Below, piece after piece: positions 32,742 to 43,070 of a stretch of DNA of 64,000 nt. The position numbers were made by a program, and so were the translations under genes. Each line of letters begins with the position of its first letter. The stretch's first letter is position 1. Location: assembly GCA_964489445.1 (NCBI GenBank), contig CAZAYU010000001.1:274276-338275 (forward strand), read 5' to 3'. The notes beneath the pieces are model-generated. The model ran no database searches, was not told the DNA's origin, and worked only from the letters and a program-made list of their open reading frames with translations. This DNA comes from an uncultured Planctomycetia bacterium. GTDB lineage: Bacteria; Omnitrophota; Gorgyraeia; Duberdicusellales; 4484-171.

Positions 32742-33053
32742 CTAGATTTCTCCCCACCAACCATCATAAAACTTCTGCAGATGTTTATAGAAATCTTCAC
32801 CGTAAGAATTTCGTCTAACATCTTTCTCTTTAAAAGAATACCTGTATCCGGCGCAATATGCTGATAATAAATCCTTGGAAGCAGCAATTTTTTTAAACAT
32901 TGCTTCATGCTCATGTTTTTTTGTATCATTGCATCTATCGGGATGATATTTTAGAGCAAGTTTGCGATACGCTGAATGAATTTTCTTTAAAGTGGCATAT
33001 TCACTCAACCCTAATATTTTTCTTGCTTGATCAATTTCTTTAAAATCCGCCAT
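32742..33053 (-). CDS. J-domain (DnaJ-like) protein
   Basis: 103 aa. HPD tripeptide in a J-domain context (LALKYHPDR). Confidence 0.7.
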   Translation of the reverse strand: MADFKEIDQARKILGLSEYATLKKIHSAYRKLALKYHPDRCNDTKKHEHEAMFKKIAASKDLLSAYCAGYRYSFKEKDVRRNSYGEDFYKHLQKFYDGWWGEI

Positions 33054-33145: not shown

Positions 33146-33349
33146 TTAAAAACAAGTAGGGCACGTACCAGTAGAACAACTCGAACCACTTTGTTTGCCA
33201 GATTTACCCATGCTAAACGTCCCAAAGGTTTTTTGAATCTTTTTACTACCGCACTTTTGGCACTTAATCAAAGATTTTTCCTGAGTTACACCTACCAATA
33301 AATCAAACTTTTCTCCGCATTGTTTACAAATATAACTATATATTGGCAT
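33146..33349 (-). CDS. FmdB-family zinc-ribbon protein
   Basis: 67 aa. CxxC ... CxxC pairs with an FmdB-like N-terminus (YSYICKQCGEKF). Confidence 0.65.
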   Translation of the reverse strand: MPIYSYICKQCGEKFDLLVGVTQEKSLIKCQKCGSKKIQKTFGTFSMGKSGKQSGSSCSTGTCPTCF

Positions 33350-33488: not shown

Positions 33489-34397
33489 TTAGTCCTGCAG
33501 CTTATTCCAAATACCCTTGATCATTTCTGTGCTTTCCTCAGCGGCGTATTCAACTATTGTTTTACCATTGACCATTGCCTCTACTATTTTCTTATCGAAT
33601 CTTAATTTACCAACAAACGGAACATTTTCTCTCTGACAATAGCTTTCTATTTTTTCACTCATTTGAATATTTAAATCATACTTATTGACCATCAATTTAA
33701 CCGGCACCTTGAAATGCTTGGCAACCTTAATAACTCGATCAGCATCATGCAACCCGGAAATAGTCGGTTCAGTTACTACCAACGCACAATCTACACCGCT
33801 TAAAGAAGCAATTACCGGACAGCCAATCCCCGGTGAGCCATCAATAATTACATAATCAGCGTTGTTCATTTTAGCTATTTCTTTTGCTTTTTCTCTTACT
33901 AAGAAAACTAATTTTCCGGAATTCTCCTCAGCAATTCCTAACCGAGCATGAACCATAGGACCAAATCGAGTATCTGATACATACCATTCTCCAGATAAAT
34001 TTTCTTTCATTTCTATCGCTTGTTGTGGACAAGCAAAACTACAGAACGCACATCCTTCACAAGCCACCGGATCAACACTGTAAGCACTATTGGCCACGCC
34101 GTCTTCTAAAGCAAAATCTATAGCAAAAAACCGACATAACTTTCTACACAACCCGCATTTATTACACTTGTCTTTATCAATAAAAGCAGTTACTCCACTT
34201 CTAAATTCATGTTTTTCTTTTATTTCGGGCTTAAGCAATAAATGTAAATCCGCAGCATCAACATCACAATCAACCATAACTTTTCCGCGATGAAACAATC
34301 TATCATTATTATAATTATTAGCTAAAGCGGCAAAACTTGCCGTAATTACTGTTTTTCCTGTTCCTCCTTTCCCGCTAATAACTACAATCTGTTTCAT
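33489..34397 (-). CDS. MinD/Mrp-superfamily P-loop ATPase with inserted 4Fe-4S ferredoxin domain (COG1149-like)
   Basis: 302 aa. Deviant Walker A GKGGTGKT. Two Cys clusters (CNKCGLCRKLC ... CEGCAFCSFACP). Confidence 0.75.
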   Translation of the reverse strand: MKQIVVISGKGGTGKTVITASFAALANNYNNDRLFHRGKVMVDCDVDAADLHLLLKPEIKEKHEFRSGVTAFIDKDKCNKCGLCRKLCRFFAIDFALEDGVANSAYSVDPVACEGCAFCSFACPQQAIEMKENLSGEWYVSDTRFGPMVHARLGIAEENSGKLVFLVREKAKEIAKMNNADYVIIDGSPGIGCPVIASLSGVDCALVVTEPTISGLHDADRVIKVAKHFKVPVKLMVNKYDLNIQMSEKIESYCQRENVPFVGKLRFDKKIVEAMVNGKTIVEYAAEESTEMIKGIWNKLQD

Positions 34398-34405
34398 ATT
34401 TTTCC

Positions 34406-35752
34406 TTATATTTGGCCGTTAGCATTTTCTGCCGCCAACACCACCGGATACATCGTAGGCGAGCTAGTTAAATAAGGATGAGTGGCCATTTGCAACGTTT
34501 CTAGCTCCGTAGAAGACATCCTTTTTTGGATAGCAACCCCGATTAGATTTATCATCTCCCCACAAGATATTCCTCCTATTACCTGACCGCCTAAAATAAT
34601 TCCTGATTTACGAGAAAAAATCAGTTTCACTTTAATATTACTTGCACCGGGCAAAGTGCCTGGATGTTTATCTACACCAGAAGCTACCCCGATTACTATT
34701 TCAAACCCCTCTTCTTTGGCACTATTCTCGGTTAAGCCAGCTGAACCTAAAACTAAGCCGTCAATATAAGTAGAATAAATAGCAATCGTCCCTTTATTCT
34801 CTCTAATCACTTTTAATGTGTAAAGATTAGCACCGGCAATTCTTGCTTCCGCAGTTGCGGTAGAAGCAAGCATAACCGGTATATCTCTGCGAGTATAGAA
34901 ATCCCTTTTTCCGACACAATCACCTACAGCAAGAATATCAGGATCACTCGTACGCATATACTCATCTACCCATATACCATGTTTCCTGCCCAAATCTAAT
35001 CCCGCTTCAGCTGCCAATTTAGTATTGGAAACCGCGCCCACACCCAAAATAACACTATCAATGTCTATTTCTTTACCATCAGAAAAACACACCTTTTCCA
35101 CTTTTCCATTGCCTTTAATCTCTTCTACCCGGGTACCAGTCAATACATTAACCTTGCAACTTCTAAGCTTTTCCTCAACAACTTTAGAAAATTCCGCATC
35201 AAAAGAGTTCGCTAAAAGCTGAGGAAGCGTTTCCGCTAGATAAACATTCAAGGTGCCTATTTTAGAAATCTCATCAGCAAATTCTACTCCAATAAACCCT
35301 CCTCCTAGAATTAAAACATTTTTCGCTTTTTTAATTTCAAGAATAACATTTTTTAAGTAATCCATATCCTTGTATACTGGATAAACTCCCTTCTTATCAA
35401 TCCCACGAATAGGCAACATGATCGGCGTTGAACCAATTGCTAAAACTAATTTTTCATAAGAATAATTTTGCCCGCTTTTAGTAATAACTTGTTTTTGCTC
35501 GCGGTCTATCCTAATCACCTCATCTATCACTATCCCTACGTTGTTCTTCTCCAACGCCGTATTAGCCAGTTTATTATCATCAGGATTCTTTAAGCTGGCA
35601 AACATATAAGGTATACCACAAGGAATACACCCATTACCTATGCTTTTTATCAATAAAATTTTCTTATCCGGATAATACCTTTTCGCGGTTATAGCGCTTA
35701 TTACTCCCGCAGGACCACCACCAACTACCAAAATATCTGTTTTCTTCCCCAT
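34406..35752 (-). CDS. FAD-dependent pyridine nucleotide-disulfide oxidoreductase, CoA-disulfide reductase / NADH oxidase family, with an extra CxxC
   Basis: 448 aa. GGGPAG FAD motif. The redox Cys lies in a CoADR-like context (PCGIPY), with an additional Cys three residues upstream (CIPC). Confidence 0.75.
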   Translation of the reverse strand: MGKKTDILVVGGGPAGVISAITAKRYYPDKKILLIKSIGNGCIPCGIPYMFASLKNPDDNKLANTALEKNNVGIVIDEVIRIDREQKQVITKSGQNYSYEKLVLAIGSTPIMLPIRGIDKKGVYPVYKDMDYLKNVILEIKKAKNVLILGGGFIGVEFADEISKIGTLNVYLAETLPQLLANSFDAEFSKVVEEKLRSCKVNVLTGTRVEEIKGNGKVEKVCFSDGKEIDIDSVILGVGAVSNTKLAAEAGLDLGRKHGIWVDEYMRTSDPDILAVGDCVGKRDFYTRRDIPVMLASTATAEARIAGANLYTLKVIRENKGTIAIYSTYIDGLVLGSAGLTENSAKEEGFEIVIGVASGVDKHPGTLPGASNIKVKLIFSRKSGIILGGQVIGGISCGEMINLIGVAIQKRMSSTELETLQMATHPYLTSSPTMYPVVLAAENANGQI

Positions 35753-35762
35753 ACAAAACTCC

Positions 35763-36161
35763 TTATGTTGATTTCAGCATTACACATAATCCATAAATGA
35801 TTTCCATGCCGTTTCTTTTGCAAAAATCAATAACTTCAATACTTTCCGCACCCGGCTGAACCCAGATTCTGTTTATTCCCTGTTGCTTACACTCACCAAC
35901 AATGTTCAATGTAACTTTCGGGGGAGTAACAATGTTTGCAACATTAACTTCTTCGGAGATATCCCTCACATGTCGATAGCATTTCACTCCCTCAAACTCA
36001 GTTAATCCCGGATTAACCGGAAACACCTTATATCCTTTTTTGGTTAACTGTTTAAAAATGCGATAAGCATATTTTTGTTCATTTCGGAATGAGCCAAAAA
36101 CTGCAAAATTCTTTTGGCTTAAAAAATCACTAACTAAATCATCCATTTTTTCCAAAATCAA
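35763..36161 (-). CDS. CoA-binding domain protein
   Basis: 132 aa. Resembles the small CoA-binding Rossmann-like family (FAVFGS ... KGYKVFPVNP). Confidence 0.7.
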   Translation of the reverse strand: MILEKMDDLVSDFLSQKNFAVFGSFRNEQKYAYRIFKQLTKKGYKVFPVNPGLTEFEGVKCYRHVRDISEEVNVANIVTPPKVTLNIVGECKQQGINRIWVQPGAESIEVIDFCKRNGMEIIYGLCVMLKST

Positions 36162-36993
36162 TTCCCGAGCATCGAAGCAATTTTCTAAATAATTCTTGAA
36201 ACTTCTGTTTGTATTCCGGCAAAGCTTCTACGATAGTTATTCCTTTTGAATAAGCAGACGCTATTTCTTTCTTAAACGGAAGCCTCATCAACACCGGGAT
36301 ACCCTGCTTAAAACAATATTCTTCTGTTTTATCATCTCCAAGATCAGAACGGTTTATTACAACACCAAAGGGAATTTTTAATTTTCTTAATACTTCAACT
36401 GCTAAAATTAGATCATTCAATCCGAAAGGCGTAGGCTCAGTAACTAAAATGCAAAAATCGCTTCCATCAATTGACGCAATTACCGGGCAAGATGTTCCCG
36501 GAGGCGCATCAATAATAGAAGTCTTGTCCTTATCTATATACTTCTTAACTGCTTTGATTAACGGCGGGGACATTGCCTGGCCAATATTTAATTTACCATG
36601 AACAAATTCTAAACCCTCTCTTTCCCCTGTTTCCAAAACACCAATTTCTTTGTTAACTTCACTAATTGCTTTTTCCGGACAAAAATAAGCACAAGAACCG
36701 CAGCCATGACATAATTCCGGAAAAACCAACACTGTATCTTTCAACAATGCTAAAGCATTGTACGCACAAACTTGCTTGCAGCGTCCACAAGCAATACACT
36801 TACTTTGATCAACCTCCGGAACGGGAATAAACACTTGTTTTTTCCCGTTAATTTTCGGTTTTACAAAAATATGCACATTGGGTTCTTCTACGTCACAATC
36901 TAAAATCTGGGTGTTGGGAATCGACAATGCTAGATTAACCGCAACTGTAGTTTTCCCGGTTCCCCCTTTTCCACTAGCAACTGAAATAATCAT
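36139..36993 (-). CDS. MinD/Mrp-superfamily P-loop ATPase with inserted 4Fe-4S ferredoxin domain (second copy)
   Basis: 284 aa. GKGGTGKT. Cys clusters CIACGRCKQVC ... CHGCGSCAYFCP. Confidence 0.75.
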   Translation of the reverse strand: MIISVASGKGGTGKTTVAVNLALSIPNTQILDCDVEEPNVHIFVKPKINGKKQVFIPVPEVDQSKCIACGRCKQVCAYNALALLKDTVLVFPELCHGCGSCAYFCPEKAISEVNKEIGVLETGEREGLEFVHGKLNIGQAMSPPLIKAVKKYIDKDKTSIIDAPPGTSCPVIASIDGSDFCILVTEPTPFGLNDLILAVEVLRKLKIPFGVVINRSDLGDDKTEEYCFKQGIPVLMRLPFKKEIASAYSKGITIVEALPEYKQKFQELFRKLLRCSGIDFGKNG

Positions 36994-37000
36994 ATCTCTC

Positions 37001-37603
37001 TCATCGGCAGACGATTATTCCTTCCTGAAATTTACTTTTGAACTTATCCAAGGAATATTTTCTACCAGTCAAATATTTTGCTATTTCTTTTAAACCTACA
37101 TTTCCCTGATCATGTCTTTTGCCATCCTGGCGGTGAATTCTGTCAACCAACTTAAATCCCTCTTCAGTAAAATCACTTAGTACTATTTTTCCTTTTAAAC
37201 TAGCTACTCTCATTAGTTCATCAATAGCCACATACGGATTAAAAAAATGATGAATTACATTTATAGCAATAACTACATCAAATAAGTTATTTTCAAATTT
37301 CAATTTTTCGGCATTAGCAATCTGAAAATCCACATTTTTTTCTAAGCCTAAACTTTCCAAACTCAATCTAGCAATTTTTTGTTCTTCGGCAGAAATATCC
37401 ACACTGACAAAACAAAACCCCTCTCTAGCTAAAACTAAAGTTGAATAGCCTTTACCTGTGCCAATTTCTAATATTTTCCCAGAAAGTGGATAAACTTTAT
37501 GAATAATGAATTTTCTTTCTGCTTCAATATCACAACCAAATTGCTTATACTTCTCTATTCTTTTCCGATATTCTGTTTGCAGCTCTTTGGCCCTATCATT
37601 CAT
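37001..37603 (-). CDS. Class I SAM-dependent methyltransferase
   Basis: 200 aa. Motif I ILEIGTGKG. Confidence 0.7.
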   Translation of the reverse strand: MNDRAKELQTEYRKRIEKYKQFGCDIEAERKFIIHKVYPLSGKILEIGTGKGYSTLVLAREGFCFVSVDISAEEQKIARLSLESLGLEKNVDFQIANAEKLKFENNLFDVVIAINVIHHFFNPYVAIDELMRVASLKGKIVLSDFTEEGFKLVDRIHRQDGKRHDQGNVGLKEIAKYLTGRKYSLDKFKSKFQEGIIVCR

Positions 37604-37607
37604 GGAA

Positions 37608-37832
37608 TCAAACCCTAACCATTTTTGCCCCGCATTTAGGACAATTTACTAATGTGCAAGGAGTTTGCGGCTGATGAGGTACTTTAGTACCACAAGCTGC
37701 ACACACACAATCTCCACCAGGGCCCCTACCTAAAGGACCATCACTCATGTTACCAGCACCTTGCCCCCGACCTATACCTCTACCTGTCCCCGGCCCTCCT
37801 CCGAAAGGCCCTGTTCCGTCTCCTCTTGGCAT
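37608..37832 (-). CDS. Glycine-rich DUF5320-like small protein with C-terminal zinc ribbon
   Basis: 74 aa. N-terminus MPRGDGTGPFGGGPGTGRG. C-terminus CxxC ... CxxC. Confidence 0.5.
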   Translation of the reverse strand: MPRGDGTGPFGGGPGTGRGIGRGQGAGNMSDGPLGRGPGGDCVCAACGTKVPHQPQTPCTLVNCPKCGAKMVRV

Positions 37833-37846
37833 AAATACCCCCTTTC

Positions 37847-38212
37847 TTAACTTGTTCCAAATTTAGAATCGACACTTGGACCGTCAGTTGTTTTAAATTC
37901 TCCTTGTTTATACTTTTCAATTACTTCTTTTACTGTTCCGGATGCACCGGTAATAATCTTGATTCCTGCCGCCTTTAAAGTCTGAAACGCGTTCGGCCCG
38001 ACATTTCCGGTAAGAACTACTTCAACTTTCTTTTCAGCAATAAGTTGACCTGATTGGATACCCGCTCCGCCTGAACTGTTGATGTTTGAATTGTTAACCG
38101 CTTCAAACTCCAATGTACCGGAATCAACAATAATAAAATATTGACATCTTCCAAACCGAGGATCAACGCTTGAATCTAAGTTGTCTCCTTGTGCAGTAAT
38201 ACAAATTTTCAT
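37847..38212 (-). CDS. NifX/NifB-like dinitrogenase FeMo-cofactor-family protein (PF02579-like)
   Basis: 121 aa. N-terminal pattern typical of the family (GRCQYFII ... TGNVGPNAFQTL). Confidence 0.75.
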   Translation of the reverse strand: MKICITAQGDNLDSSVDPRFGRCQYFIIVDSGTLEFEAVNNSNINSSGGAGIQSGQLIAEKKVEVVLTGNVGPNAFQTLKAAGIKIITGASGTVKEVIEKYKQGEFKTTDGPSVDSKFGTS

Positions 38213-38628
38213 CAGTTTATCTCCTTTTGTTCATGCTCACAATTATCTTCGTTGGGATGGTCGCAAGCTGTCTTTTCTGCGCCATACCCTTTTCCGGCCC
38301 CCGGATTACAAAGACTTTCCCCCCCTTGAAGCGTTCCTGACGCAACTTGTTGAGCTATTTCATCTATTTTGCCACTGATCCCCATTATTGCTTCAATTCC
38401 GCTTTCATCAAATAACATTTGAGCCCGTTGGCCCATACCGCCGGCAATAATCGCATTTACCCCTTTTTCTTTTAAAAACTGTGGGAGAAATCCCGGATGA
38501 TGCCCGGGATTATCAATAACCTCTTTGCTGATTATCTGTTTATTCTCTATTTCTAAAATCGTAAATGACGGACAACGCCCAAAATGAGCAGAAACAAAAT
38601 TACTATCTGTAGAAATCGCTACTTTCAA
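38212..38628 (-). CDS. NifX/NifB-like dinitrogenase FeMo-cofactor-family protein (second copy)
   Basis: 138 aa. HFGRCPSFTILE ... AGGMGQRA. Apparent TTG start after the SD GGAGGG. Its stop overlaps the next gene's start by 1 nt. Confidence 0.7.
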   Translation of the reverse strand: MKVAISTDSNFVSAHFGRCPSFTILEIENKQIISKEVIDNPGHHPGFLPQFLKEKGVNAIIAGGMGQRAQMLFDESGIEAIMGISGKIDEIAQQVASGTLQGGESLCNPGAGKGYGAEKTACDHPNEDNCEHEQKEIN

Positions 38629-38654
38629 ATTAACCCTCCTTAAAGTTCGGAAAT

Positions 38655-38689
38655 AAGGGGAAAATAAAGATACACTTTATTTTCCCCTT
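38655..38689 (-). promoter_or_regulatory. Perfect 15-bp inverted repeat (5-nt loop) between the first DUF5320 gene and the NifX-like genes; candidate attenuator or terminator
   Basis: aaggggaaaataaag-ataca-ctttattttcccctt read directly. Confidence 0.4.
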
Positions 38690-38704
38690 ATTTCTCTTTA
38701 CTCC

Positions 38705-39094
38705 TCATTCTCCTTCAGATCCTGAGTTAGCTTCCAGTTCTTTAATCCTTCTGGTTATCGCACTTATCTCTTCCTGCATAACTTGAGCCTCTTCTTTTAA
38801 AGCTCTAGCTTCATCCTGAGCCGACACAGCAGGTACATTATACAACGGATTTCCAGAGGAGACACCATAGCTATTAGGAGCTGCTGCTCTGCGCCATCCA
38901 AAGTTACGTCCAACCCCGCGTCCCCGGCTGAAACCTCTACCAAATCCCCTTCCATAACCAAACCCTTGGTTTGCTCCGGGAATATTGCCCACCAAATTCA
39001 TATAGCCCGGTATCGAATAGCCTGCGCAAACACCTGCTCTTCTCCCAGTCATTGGACCTGAACCCATTGGACCTGTTCTATCACCACCTGGCAT
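38705..39094 (-). CDS. Glycine-rich DUF5320-like protein with C-terminal coiled coil
   Basis: The ORF-track start is 47 codons upstream and overlaps fur. The internal ATG at 39094 is preceded by the SD GGGGTGA and opens with MPGGDRTGPMGSGPMTGRRAG, which matches the family N-terminus. Confidence 0.5.
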   Translation of the reverse strand: MPGGDRTGPMGSGPMTGRRAGVCAGYSIPGYMNLVGNIPGANQGFGYGRGFGRGFSRGRGVGRNFGWRRAAAPNSYGVSSGNPLYNVPAVSAQDEARALKEEAQVMQEEISAITRRIKELEANSGSEGE

Positions 39095-39107: not shown

Positions 39108-39584
39108 TTATTTTTGCATCCCCTGACACTTATCACACAACCCATAAAATTGAACAATATGTTTAATAATTTTAAAATTATACTTTCGGGAAAGCCCTTT
39201 TTCAATTCTACCCAACAACTCTGCCTCTTCATCAATAAAATCTGTATAGTCGACTACCTTCTGGCAACTTACACAAACTAAATGATGATGATGTGCCTTA
39301 TCTTTAGTTCCTCTGTTTAATTCATAGCGTGCCCGTCCATCACCAAAATCAAATCTATACACTAGTTTTAACTGTACTAATAATTCTAGAGTCCGGTATA
39401 TTGTAGATATTCCCGCTGAAGGATGAATTTTATGAACCTGATGATACACTTCTTCGGCGCTTAAATGTTTACTTGTCTGGGTGAGAACATCTAAAATTAC
39501 CTGCCGAGAAAGAGTTAGCCGATAGCCATGTCCTATAAATCTTCCCTGACATCCTCTCATACATCTACTAAACTTCCTGGGCAT
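39108..39584 (-). CDS. Fur-family metalloregulator (Fur/PerR/Zur type)
   Basis: 158 aa. Winged-helix region followed by HHHHLVCVSC ... CxxC metal sites. Confidence 0.8.
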   Translation of the reverse strand: MPRKFSRCMRGCQGRFIGHGYRLTLSRQVILDVLTQTSKHLSAEEVYHQVHKIHPSAGISTIYRTLELLVQLKLVYRFDFGDGRARYELNRGTKDKAHHHHLVCVSCQKVVDYTDFIDEEAELLGRIEKGLSRKYNFKIIKHIVQFYGLCDKCQGMQK

Positions 39585-39597
39585 TTATTCTCCTTAT

Positions 39598-39612
39598 TGA
39601 GAATGGTTCTCA
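39598..39612. promoter_or_regulatory. Fur-box-like 7-1-7 palindrome TGAGAAT-G-GTTCTCA immediately upstream of the fur-family gene's RBS
   Basis: Read directly. Resembles the TGATAAT-N-ATTATCA Fur/PerR box. Confidence 0.4.
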
Positions 39613-39714
39613 TTACCAATAAAATATACCATTTCTTTTTCCTCTTGTCAACAAGATAAATAAGGAATAAATTTCCTTAGCAGATTACGCTTATCTAGCC
39701 TCTTAATAGATATC

Positions 39715-42200: not shown

Positions 42201-43070
42201 CTATAGCCCTCTTAGTATTTCCGGTTTTAACTCAACATCTCCGTTAATGGCTGATTCTAGAATATGCAACAATTTATTTTTGTCTTTGGGGAGTACTCCT
42301 CCTAAAGAAATATAATTTGAAGCATGGTTTGCACGAAATATAGTTCCATTTAATTTAAGCCCGTTAATAATGGCATAGGACTCTTTTAGCAATTCTATAG
42401 AACTTAATTCTTGAAAGGCACCTTTTTTTATCTCCTCAGCTAGAGGCGTGCCGGGAATAATCATAAGCGAAAGAAACGAAAGATATCTAGGCTGCATTAA
42501 ATTTAAAGCTTCTATTGTACCTTTGACATGCTCTTTAGAATATTTTACTCCGCCTAAACCTAATAGCACAATAACCGAAGACTTTATTCTTACCATGGCC
42601 GCTTTATTTGCTGCTTCAATCATTTCTTCAACGCTTGAATGCTTACCGCAGTAATCCAATATCTTTTGGCTTCCACTTTCCAAACCCATATACACAAGAC
42701 TTAAGCTATGATCGCGTAATTCTTTTAATTCATGTTGGTTTCTCTGTGCTATATTATGCCCATTAGCATAACTGGAAATGCGAGAAAGCTTAGGAAAGGT
42801 TTCTTTTAGCTTTCTTAAGATTGGAAGAATCTTTTGATTGCTTAGAACAAGCGCATCGCCATCCATAAGAAATACGCGCCTTGCATTTTTATTCCAACGA
42901 AAGTACTGATTAATATCATCTAAAATTTCTTCATCATCTTTTATTCGAAACGGTTTGTTTTGGTACGCTCCGCAAAAACTACAGAAATTCACAGAACATC
43001 CCAATGTTACTTGCAATAAAAAACTATCTGCTTCTGCCGGAGGCCTTATCACCGGTTCAATAATGCTCAT
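42201..43070 (-). CDS. Radical-SAM-like protein with non-canonical Cx4Cx2C cluster
   Basis: 289 aa. GCSVNFCSFCG near the N-terminus. TIM-barrel-like periodicity. Sits 9 bp upstream of the helicase. Confidence 0.45.
   Translation of the reverse strand: MSIIEPVIRPPAEADSFLLQVTLGCSVNFCSFCGAYQNKPFRIKDDEEILDDINQYFRWNKNARRVFLMDGDALVLSNQKILPILRKLKETFPKLSRISSYANGHNIAQRNQHELKELRDHSLSLVYMGLESGSQKILDYCGKHSSVEEMIEAANKAAMVRIKSSVIVLLGLGGVKYSKEHVKGTIEALNLMQPRYLSFLSLMIIPGTPLAEEIKKGAFQELSSIELLKESYAIINGLKLNGTIFRANHASNYISLGGVLPKDKNKLLHILESAINGDVELKPEILRGL

Follow-up and report, generated by a model that had tools for sequence, protein, structure and literature searches.

Two small proteins, here called A and B, are encoded around a pair of NifX-like genes in a 64-kb stretch of DNA from an uncultured Planctomycetia bacterium (the window, meaning the whole stretch that was analysed), and their genes belong to an operon on the minus strand that runs from 39584 down to 33489 and starts with a Fur-family gene. 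B (38705–39094, minus strand, 129 amino acids) is a DUF5320 protein, and A (37608–37832, minus strand, 74 amino acids) is DUF5320-like. Both might be accessory tails or adaptors that act in trans, in the manner of the tail of the archaeal protein IssA, within a metal-sulfide system of the orange-protein (ORP) or IssA type in this Fur-headed operon, a reading of the genome comparison that we hold with about as much belief as doubt. The bare functional partnership with the NifX-like proteins is held with more confidence than this reading as a whole, and the specific chemistry with less. The role of the two proteins had been called unknown in the first-pass annotation of this DNA. The fusions of their tails to NifX-like, ferredoxin and cation-efflux proteins, the identity of a neighbour as an ORP homologue, and the Fur-family regulator together indicate metal-sulfide handling, and the role is narrowed to that extent. 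The two genes had also been described as flanking the NifX-like pair, and both open reading frames were indeed found there on the minus strand, in an arrangement that is conserved beyond the window.

The connection to the NifX-like proteins comes from gene fusions. Synteny was counted over the 80 best related loci, which were searched with the window proteins and 53 of which have enough flanking sequence. NifX-like domains that carry a tail at their C-terminus, within one polypeptide, were found in 13 of the 80 loci; ten of these tails are B-like, with Gly/Arg/Met repeats and a helix and in several cases also a 2x[4Fe-4S] ferredoxin, and three are A-like and carry the ribbon that is described below. 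Three fusions of Nitro_FeMo-Co and DUF5320 that were tested score 39–41 bits on the DUF5320 model PF17253, above the Pfam cut-off (gathering score 27 bits). At locus L057, one fused gene corresponds to the window genes for X2, the second NifX-like protein, and A, which lie 14 nt apart. Two cation-efflux (CDF) transporters (L029, 4124–5215, and L033, 3400–4485), a DUF134 DNA-binding protein (L051, 9535–9951) and a ferredoxin (L029, 2791–3243) likewise end in a tail with the A-type ribbon. The N-terminal motif of the family, G[DN]x[TS]GP, is kept in 107 of 136 stand-alone copies compared with none of the 13 NifX-tail fusions. As this N-motif is lost exactly upon fusion to the NifX domain, the NifX-like protein is indicated as its docking partner.

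The gene neighbourhood points in the same direction. Co-occurrence of DUF5320 proteins with PF02579 proteins and COG1149-type ATPases, which had been raised in the first-pass annotation, was borne out by a NifX-like or MinD/ferredoxin gene within 5 kb in 76 of the 80 loci. Among the 53 well-flanked loci, NifX-like genes are present in 48, MinD/ferredoxin ATPases in 47 (within 5 kb), an A-type gene in 34 and fur directly upstream in 19; over all 80 loci, a fur-like gene lies immediately 5' of B in 26. The order fur-B-X-X-A-(methyltransferase)-ATPase-(CoA-binding)-(oxidoreductase)-ATPase was found again in unrelated anaerobic phyla. The commonest gene before A is the ORP-type X2 (21 cases), and a homologue of the methyltransferase, detected by a strict search in 13 of the 80 loci, usually follows directly 3' of A.

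The family is widespread. Each GTDB species was represented by one genome in a scan for relatives of B. Such a relative is encoded in at least 530 of these species-level genomes, which belong to Omnitrophota, Planctomycetota, Zixibacteria, Bacillota, Chloroflexota, Spirochaetota, Desulfobacterota and several archaeal groups. A HMMER scan of 1.84 billion cluster representatives (50% identity) with the B-type profile returned 7,705 clusters at E <= 1e-3 and 3,351 at E <= 1e-10. The nearest relatives of A and B, among the matches listed, come from Omnitrophota metagenome bins, and the window itself probably belongs to this phylum. Among the 120 matches listed for a Desulfobacterales B-type query, none is named Desulfovibrio. 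Close relatives of A and of B alike carry the NCBI name 'DUF5320 domain-containing protein', and a full-text literature search found no paper describing a DUF5320 function.

B proved to be a bona fide member of this family, as had been supposed, with 91.2 bits (E 9.9e-26) over the full PF17253 hidden Markov model (HMM; positions 1–99 of 99). It opens with MPGGDRTGPMGSGPMTGRR and contains the internal repeat segment GFGYGRGFGRGFSRGRGVGR. Its anatomy was derived from an alignment of 31 diverse B-type proteins, in which the N-motif has the consensus MPGGDRTGPMGxGPMTGRAAGYCAGYxVPGY with an invariant cysteine (C23), the middle part consists of G-R-G-(F/W/Y) repeats followed by a Tyr/Pro-rich linker, and the conserved C-terminal helix has the consensus QxEAxMLKxQAKxMQEExxAINxRIKELE. 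In the AlphaFold2 model, residues 1–88 are disordered (predicted local distance difference test, pLDDT, below 50) and residues 92–128 form a single helix with a pLDDT of about 95. In its best heptad register, this amphipathic helix has A, A, L, A, M, I, I, I and L at the a/d positions, a pattern of the coiled-coil type. Of the Gly/Arg/Phe repeats and coiled coil that had been read from the letters, the repeats and the C-terminal helix were thereby confirmed.

The start of B could be corrected by comparison with its homologues. MPxGDxTGP is the exact N-terminus in 106 of the 120 listed B homologues, which have a median length of ~124 amino acids, and upstream of the MP motif no conservation was seen in any B homologue. 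Because the N-termini of the homologues begin at the MP motif, ATG 39094 is, on this alignment, the true start of B, 51 nt downstream of the public call. The Shine-Dalgarno sequence AAGGGGGTGA is situated 5 nt 5' of this codon, and a gap of 13 nt separates it from the fur stop codon (39110–39108). In public metagenome annotations, B begins at ATG 39145, which gives 146 amino acids and a 38-nt overlap with fur; the shift of these calls by 51 nt is a practical gain. The first-pass annotation had preferred the same internal start, with its Shine-Dalgarno sequence and without the fur overlap, and was right that the start in the open reading frame track is wrong, but the competing ATG that it placed at 39235 does not exist: 39235, the first position of the long open reading frame, is a TTG, and the next ATG is at 39232.

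In six relatives (P0242, P0066, P0243, P0072, P0310 and P0345; 157–190 amino acids), a complete B-type protein is preceded in frame by an additional short N-terminal unit, MPGFDGTGPxGxGPxTGxGxGYC(V/I)V, and a linker. From these extended relatives, the N-motif and its cysteine appear to behave as a separable module; alternatively, the long proteins could be two genes read as one.

A (sequence MPRGDGTGPFGGGPGTGRGIGRGQGAGNMSDGPLGRGPGGDCVCAACGTKVPHQPQTPCTLVNCPKCGAKMVRV) is composed of the N-motif, a Gly/Arg stretch and a Cys6His ribbon, and belongs to a tight subfamily with lengths of about 70–76 amino acids among the 120 homologues listed. MPxGDxTGP is the exact N-terminus in 106 of these 120, and two CxxC pairs, as in A, are present in 116. 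A and B are identical in 14 of the first 21 residues (BLASTP E 2e-5), and the comparison of the A-type with the B-type profile gave 95% probability and E 3.7e-8, confined to columns 1–21. Both proteins are predicted to be disordered over much of their length, and both are strongly cationic and rich in Gly and Arg. The family signature that had been noticed in both proteins thus holds for the shared N-motif, but A does not formally reach the Pfam DUF5320 threshold, with 22.8 bits against a cut-off of 27 and a match limited to HMM positions 1–48. Some close homologues of A exceed this threshold in precomputed Pfam.

The C-terminal half of A was modelled by AlphaFold2 as a small beta ribbon (residues 40–74, pLDDT 82–89) behind a disordered segment (residues 1–38), with C44/C47 and C64/C67 as the knuckles. 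Invariant residues of A are C44, C47, H53, P58, C59, C64 and C67, and C42 is present in at least 90% of the sequences. A resembles small zinc-ribbon and rubredoxin-knuckle domains in the two CxxC knuckles and the predicted small beta ribbon, and differs from them by three further invariant or near-invariant ligands, C42, H53 and C59. The CxxC-CxxC zinc ribbon of the first-pass annotation was therefore correct as to the ribbon and the CxxC pairs, whereas a plain CxxC-CxxC arrangement does not account for the additional conserved ligands. Since C42, H53 and C59 are conserved beyond the zinc-ribbon knuckles, the residue pattern suggests a second or different metal site in A rather than a plain four-Cys zinc ribbon. 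The nearest solved folds of the ribbon model by Foldseek are zinc-binding lids, ribbons and rubredoxin-like knuckles, all non-significant (E >= 0.38); the A-type profile matched ribbons in the PDB with E >= 0.086 at best, and the Cys6His ribbon is covered by no Pfam model. Profile searches with the A-type and B-type alignments returned no solved relative of A or B, with compositional or non-significant matches only. The ATPase inhibitor IF1, RG tails and small ribosomal ribbons were rejected as relatives of A or B for the same reason.

The comparison with IssA gives the disordered part of B a possible meaning. Storage of iron and sulfur by a protein of the IssA type is known from a single archaeon (PMC5524996). 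IssA of Pyrococcus furiosus consists of a NifX-like domain (IPR003731), which was modelled on the template MTH1175, and a disordered tail of 70 residues, in which a Pro-rich stretch is followed by cationic, aromatic and Gly residues (PMC5524996). The tail has a pI (isoelectric point) of 10.7 and holds 15 Gly, 14 aromatic, 7 cationic and 11 Pro residues and 1 Cys, the sole one of the protein; it has been proposed to wrap anionic thioferrate electrostatically, and many members of the clade are tail-less (PMC5524996). Residues 1–89 of B share this tail chemistry by composition, with a pI of 11.4, 26% Gly, 10 Arg, 10 aromatic residues, 8 Pro and 1 Cys, and are followed by an acidic helix. The fused NifX-like and DUF5320 proteins of related loci and the match of X2 to MTH1175 are further likenesses. 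Unlike IssA, the window has one gene for the domain and another for the tail, and B and A each carry an additional element, a coiled-coil helix in B and a Cys-rich ribbon in A.

The two NifX-like proteins relate the operon to the ORP system. X2 (37847–38212, minus strand; PF02579, 92.7 bits) has the ORP structure 2WFB as best solved relative (E 7.5e-24, full length), with MTH1175 at E 9e-19. X1 (38212–38628, minus strand; PF02579, 84 bits) matches the Di-Nase part of MrpORP with 102.7 bits and has its best solved relatives in TM1816 (1T3V and 1O13, E 1e-16). HFGRC occurs close to the N-terminus of X1, and the C-terminal end of the protein is rich in Cys and His (C..ACDH..NCEH). In Desulfovibrio vulgaris, the ORP system includes the ATPases Orp3 and Orp4, the NifX-like proteins Orp5 and Orp8, and Orp9, which is MrpORP, a protein that joins Mrp/NBP35 to a Di-Nase domain (PMC6345978, PMC8359166). 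The function of the ORP complex is putative; a role in cell division was suggested, and MrpORP was found at the cell pole (PMC6345978). The described complex comprises five proteins, and no DUF5320 protein is among them.

The window shares with this cluster X2 as a homologue of ORP/Orp8 and two paralogous MinD-type ATPases with 2x[4Fe-4S], which is the architecture of Orp3 and Orp4 (PMC6345978). MrpORP itself was identified by the NCBI equivalog model (cut-off 450) at 505–557 bits in five DUF5320 clusters (L017, L044, L047, L062 and L073). Two differences stand against these likenesses. The window is without MrpORP (Orp9), and a Fur-family gene with a sigma-70-like promoter stands at its head in place of OrpR, the sigma-54 activator of the Desulfovibrio orp cluster (PMC8359166), although the window was not searched in full for homologues of OrpR. 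From the ORP homology of X2, the ATPases of the Orp3/Orp4 type and the presence of MrpORP in related loci, the window operon is, by its gene content, an ORP-type cluster in which a Fur-family regulator replaces OrpR.

The Fur-family protein is encoded by the first gene of the operon (39108–39584, minus strand; PF01475, 104 bits), and its best NCBIfam match is the Bacillus-type Fur with 127 bits, below the cut-off of 220. Upstream of it, a sigma-70-like promoter (39623–39651, minus strand) was predicted from the consensus, with TTGACA, a 17-nt spacer, TATATT and a TG extension, in agreement with the consensus at 11 of 12 positions. TGAGAATGGTTCTCA (39598–39612), which separates the -10 element from the start of fur, is a 7-1-7 palindrome with one mismatch and a putative operator of the Fur-family protein. 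In related loci, the fur-like gene is preceded by the consensus TGAAAATnATTTTCA in 16 of 30 cases, at 1.7 per kb compared with 0.06 per kb over all loci (~28-fold), and a second copy often lies 20–45 nt 5' of B. Fur-type boxes before fur-like or B genes are spread over many phyla and were recorded in L003, L009, L012, L014, L018, L025, L029, L034, L041, L045, L053, L061, L068 and L080.

A second regulatory feature is a perfect 20-bp hairpin (38650–38694, -30.4 kcal/mol) between the stop codon of B and the first NifX-like gene. Over 79 loci, the 90 nt after the B stop codon have a median folding energy of -29.8 kcal/mol, compared with -14.5 to -19.8 kcal/mol after other genes of the cluster (p <= 5e-11). 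Measured against shuffled sequences, the median z-score of this region is -2.9, and that after NifX-like genes is -0.1. In most loci, the hairpin is kept in position and not in sequence. Attenuation within the operon or stabilisation of the 3' end is its probable function, and its positional conservation suggests that transcripts of fur and B exceed those of the genes behind them in number.

These observations could be combined into the following mechanism. A and B would act in trans as tails for the carriers X1 and X2, and would dock by the N-motif onto these NifX-like proteins or, possibly, onto the MinD/ferredoxin ATPases. The NifX-like domain would hold an anionic inorganic species, and the Arg/aromatic repeats would wrap this species and neutralise its charge; an Fe-S cluster or a thioferrate-like chain, as in IssA, or a Mo/Cu thiometallate cluster, as in ORP, are candidates for it. 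Terminal ligands might be contributed by the invariant Cys of B (C23) and the Cys/His set of A, the helix of B could multimerise the assembly, and the two ATPases with ferredoxin insert might load or unload the clusters. The hairpin after B would keep B and Fur above the downstream enzymes, which would fit a stoichiometric matrix component.

Several points weigh against this picture. Its support consists of genome comparison and prediction, and Fe-S, thioferrate and Mo/Cu sulfide are all still candidates for the cargo. Docking by the N-motif is deduced from the loss of the motif in the fusions, and the motif could instead need a free N-terminus; some of the relatives with 157–190 amino acids carry a second N-motif internally. 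The likeness between B and the IssA tail is one of composition. No open reading frame of the 64-kb window matches MrpORP beyond its separate domains. The copy of the box in the window is 3 mismatches off the TGAAAATnATTTTCA consensus, and at this distance the consensus is not enriched (21 matches, 23 expected), so the operator TGAGAATGGTTCTCA is provisional and drawn from position and palindromy alone. If the operon were repressed by Fur, iron limitation would induce it, which would suit cluster biogenesis more than iron storage.

Other roles have been weighed on the same evidence. A and B might be partners or adaptors of the MinD/ParA-type ATPases, with an N-peptide that stimulates or recruits the ATPase and with the disordered region and coiled coil as positioned cargo or scaffold, similar to MinE, the N-terminal peptides of ParB, and McdB. 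MinD/ferredoxin ATPases do lie within 5 kb in 47 of the 53 well-flanked loci, one N-motif is placed on two different C-terminal modules as expected of adaptors, B pairs a disordered region with a helix, and the ORP complex has been put forward for cell division, with MrpORP at the pole (PMC6345978). We nevertheless consider this role unlikely, because the fusions involve NifX-like domains, ferredoxin and cation transporters and never an ATPase, the exact coincidence of N-motif loss with NifX-like fusion would be left unexplained, and the N-motif has few positive charges, whereas known ATPase-stimulating peptides need Lys or Arg. The neighbouring Fur-family gene gives rise to another proposal, in which B would be a co-regulator or metal-sensing partner of this protein. 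The position of fur directly upstream of B in 26 of the 80 loci, the hairpin that sets fur-B apart from the remaining operon and the Fur-type boxes directly 5' of B in several loci would agree with it. Most B genes, though, have no adjacent fur, tails of the B type are fused to NifX-like domains and not to Fur, and the boxes before B are equally explained if B is a Fur target, which leaves this proposal with a very small chance.

Composition has suggested still another role. The RG/FG segments had been thought to mediate RNA binding or condensate-like behaviour, so that A and B would resemble eukaryotic RGG proteins and their neighbourhood would be incidental. The composition is RGG-box-like, the RG tails of uS5 and SmD1 and small zinc ribbons of the ribosome are matched weakly (E 0.02–10), and some assembly behaviour of A and B is plausible since IssA forms very large assemblies (PMC5524996). 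Every such match is, however, non-significant and compositional, no recurrent gene of RNA metabolism was found in the related clusters, and the synteny with metal-cluster genes is kept across phyla and accompanied by fusions to metal-related domains; the earlier suggestion found no support, and we consider this role highly improbable. Since A and B are small, keep the N-terminus and vary in the rest, and since a S-adenosylmethionine (SAM) methyltransferase recurs after A, they also call to mind precursors of ribosomally synthesised and post-translationally modified peptides (RiPPs), with the N-terminus as leader and the methyltransferase or oxidoreductase as tailoring enzyme. As the clusters contain no recurrent core RiPP enzyme (a radical SAM gene at 42201–43070 is outside the conserved block), the C-terminal helix and ribbon are conserved units that are predicted to fold, and the tails occur as C-terminal fusions on a globular domain, this idea is hardly credible.

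Carried beyond the window, the proposal of trans-acting IssA-like tails would make DUF5320 a large overlooked class of disordered polycationic tails that are docked by the N-motif on carriers of the ORP/IssA type and template, cap and charge-neutralise metal sulfide. These tails and the MinD/ferredoxin ATPases would then make up a system, widespread among anaerobic bacteria and archaea, that stores and moves Fe-S or thiometallate species, with the hairpin setting the subunit ratio. This generalisation is tentative, and we would sooner doubt it than rely on it. DUF5320 as a Pfam family and the ORP cluster were already known; what may be new is the evidence from fusions, the interpretation along the lines of IssA, the hairpin conserved after B and the boxes of the Fur type. 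If A and B are detachable IssA-like tails, the ORP and IssA systems would become linked, the tail-less state of many IssA relatives would be explained, and A, B, X1, X2 and the two ATPases would be a concrete, testable set of partners for studying how metal sulfide is held and moved in anaerobes. A functional lead is thereby given for a large orphan family that is spread over anaerobic phyla.

The remaining genes of the operon, all on the minus strand, are closely spaced with those described above. The start codon of X1 is a TTG preceded by AAGGAGG, the X1 stop codon overlaps the start of X2 (ATGA), and the start of A, 14 nt past the stop codon of X2, is preceded by GGGGGT. Behind A follows a small class I SAM-dependent methyltransferase (37001–37603; Methyltransf_11, 67 bits); it is a generic enzyme of 200 amino acids and is evidence neither for nor against methylation of the RG repeats, which are candidate substrates beside a thiol or a small molecule. 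The first MinD/ParA-type P-loop ATPase with a 2x[4Fe-4S] ferredoxin insert of the Orp3/Orp4 type (36139–36993; Pfam ParA, CbiA and Fer4) and the second MinD/ParA-type ATPase with a ferredoxin insert (33489–34397; the same three Pfam matches) match each other with E 7e-44.

Between the two ATPases (34406–36161) lie the genes for a protein with a CoA (coenzyme A)-binding domain (35763–36161; CoA_binding_2, 110 bits) and for a pyridine-nucleotide disulfide oxidoreductase resembling CoA-disulfide reductase (34406–35752; Pyr_redox_2, 204 bits). Both genes were also seen in L003, L018, L022, L041, L061 and L074. The flavoprotein scores 226 bits against the CoA-disulfide reductase model, under its cut-off of 579. 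A relative of it in Pyrococcus reduces elemental sulfur, and by this analogy the window flavoprotein may supply sulfide. Just past the second ATPase, public calls of the same locus place a Zn_ribbon_8 protein of 67 amino acids (PF09723, ~33146–33349, minus strand), followed by a DnaJ-domain protein of 103 amino acids (32742–33053).

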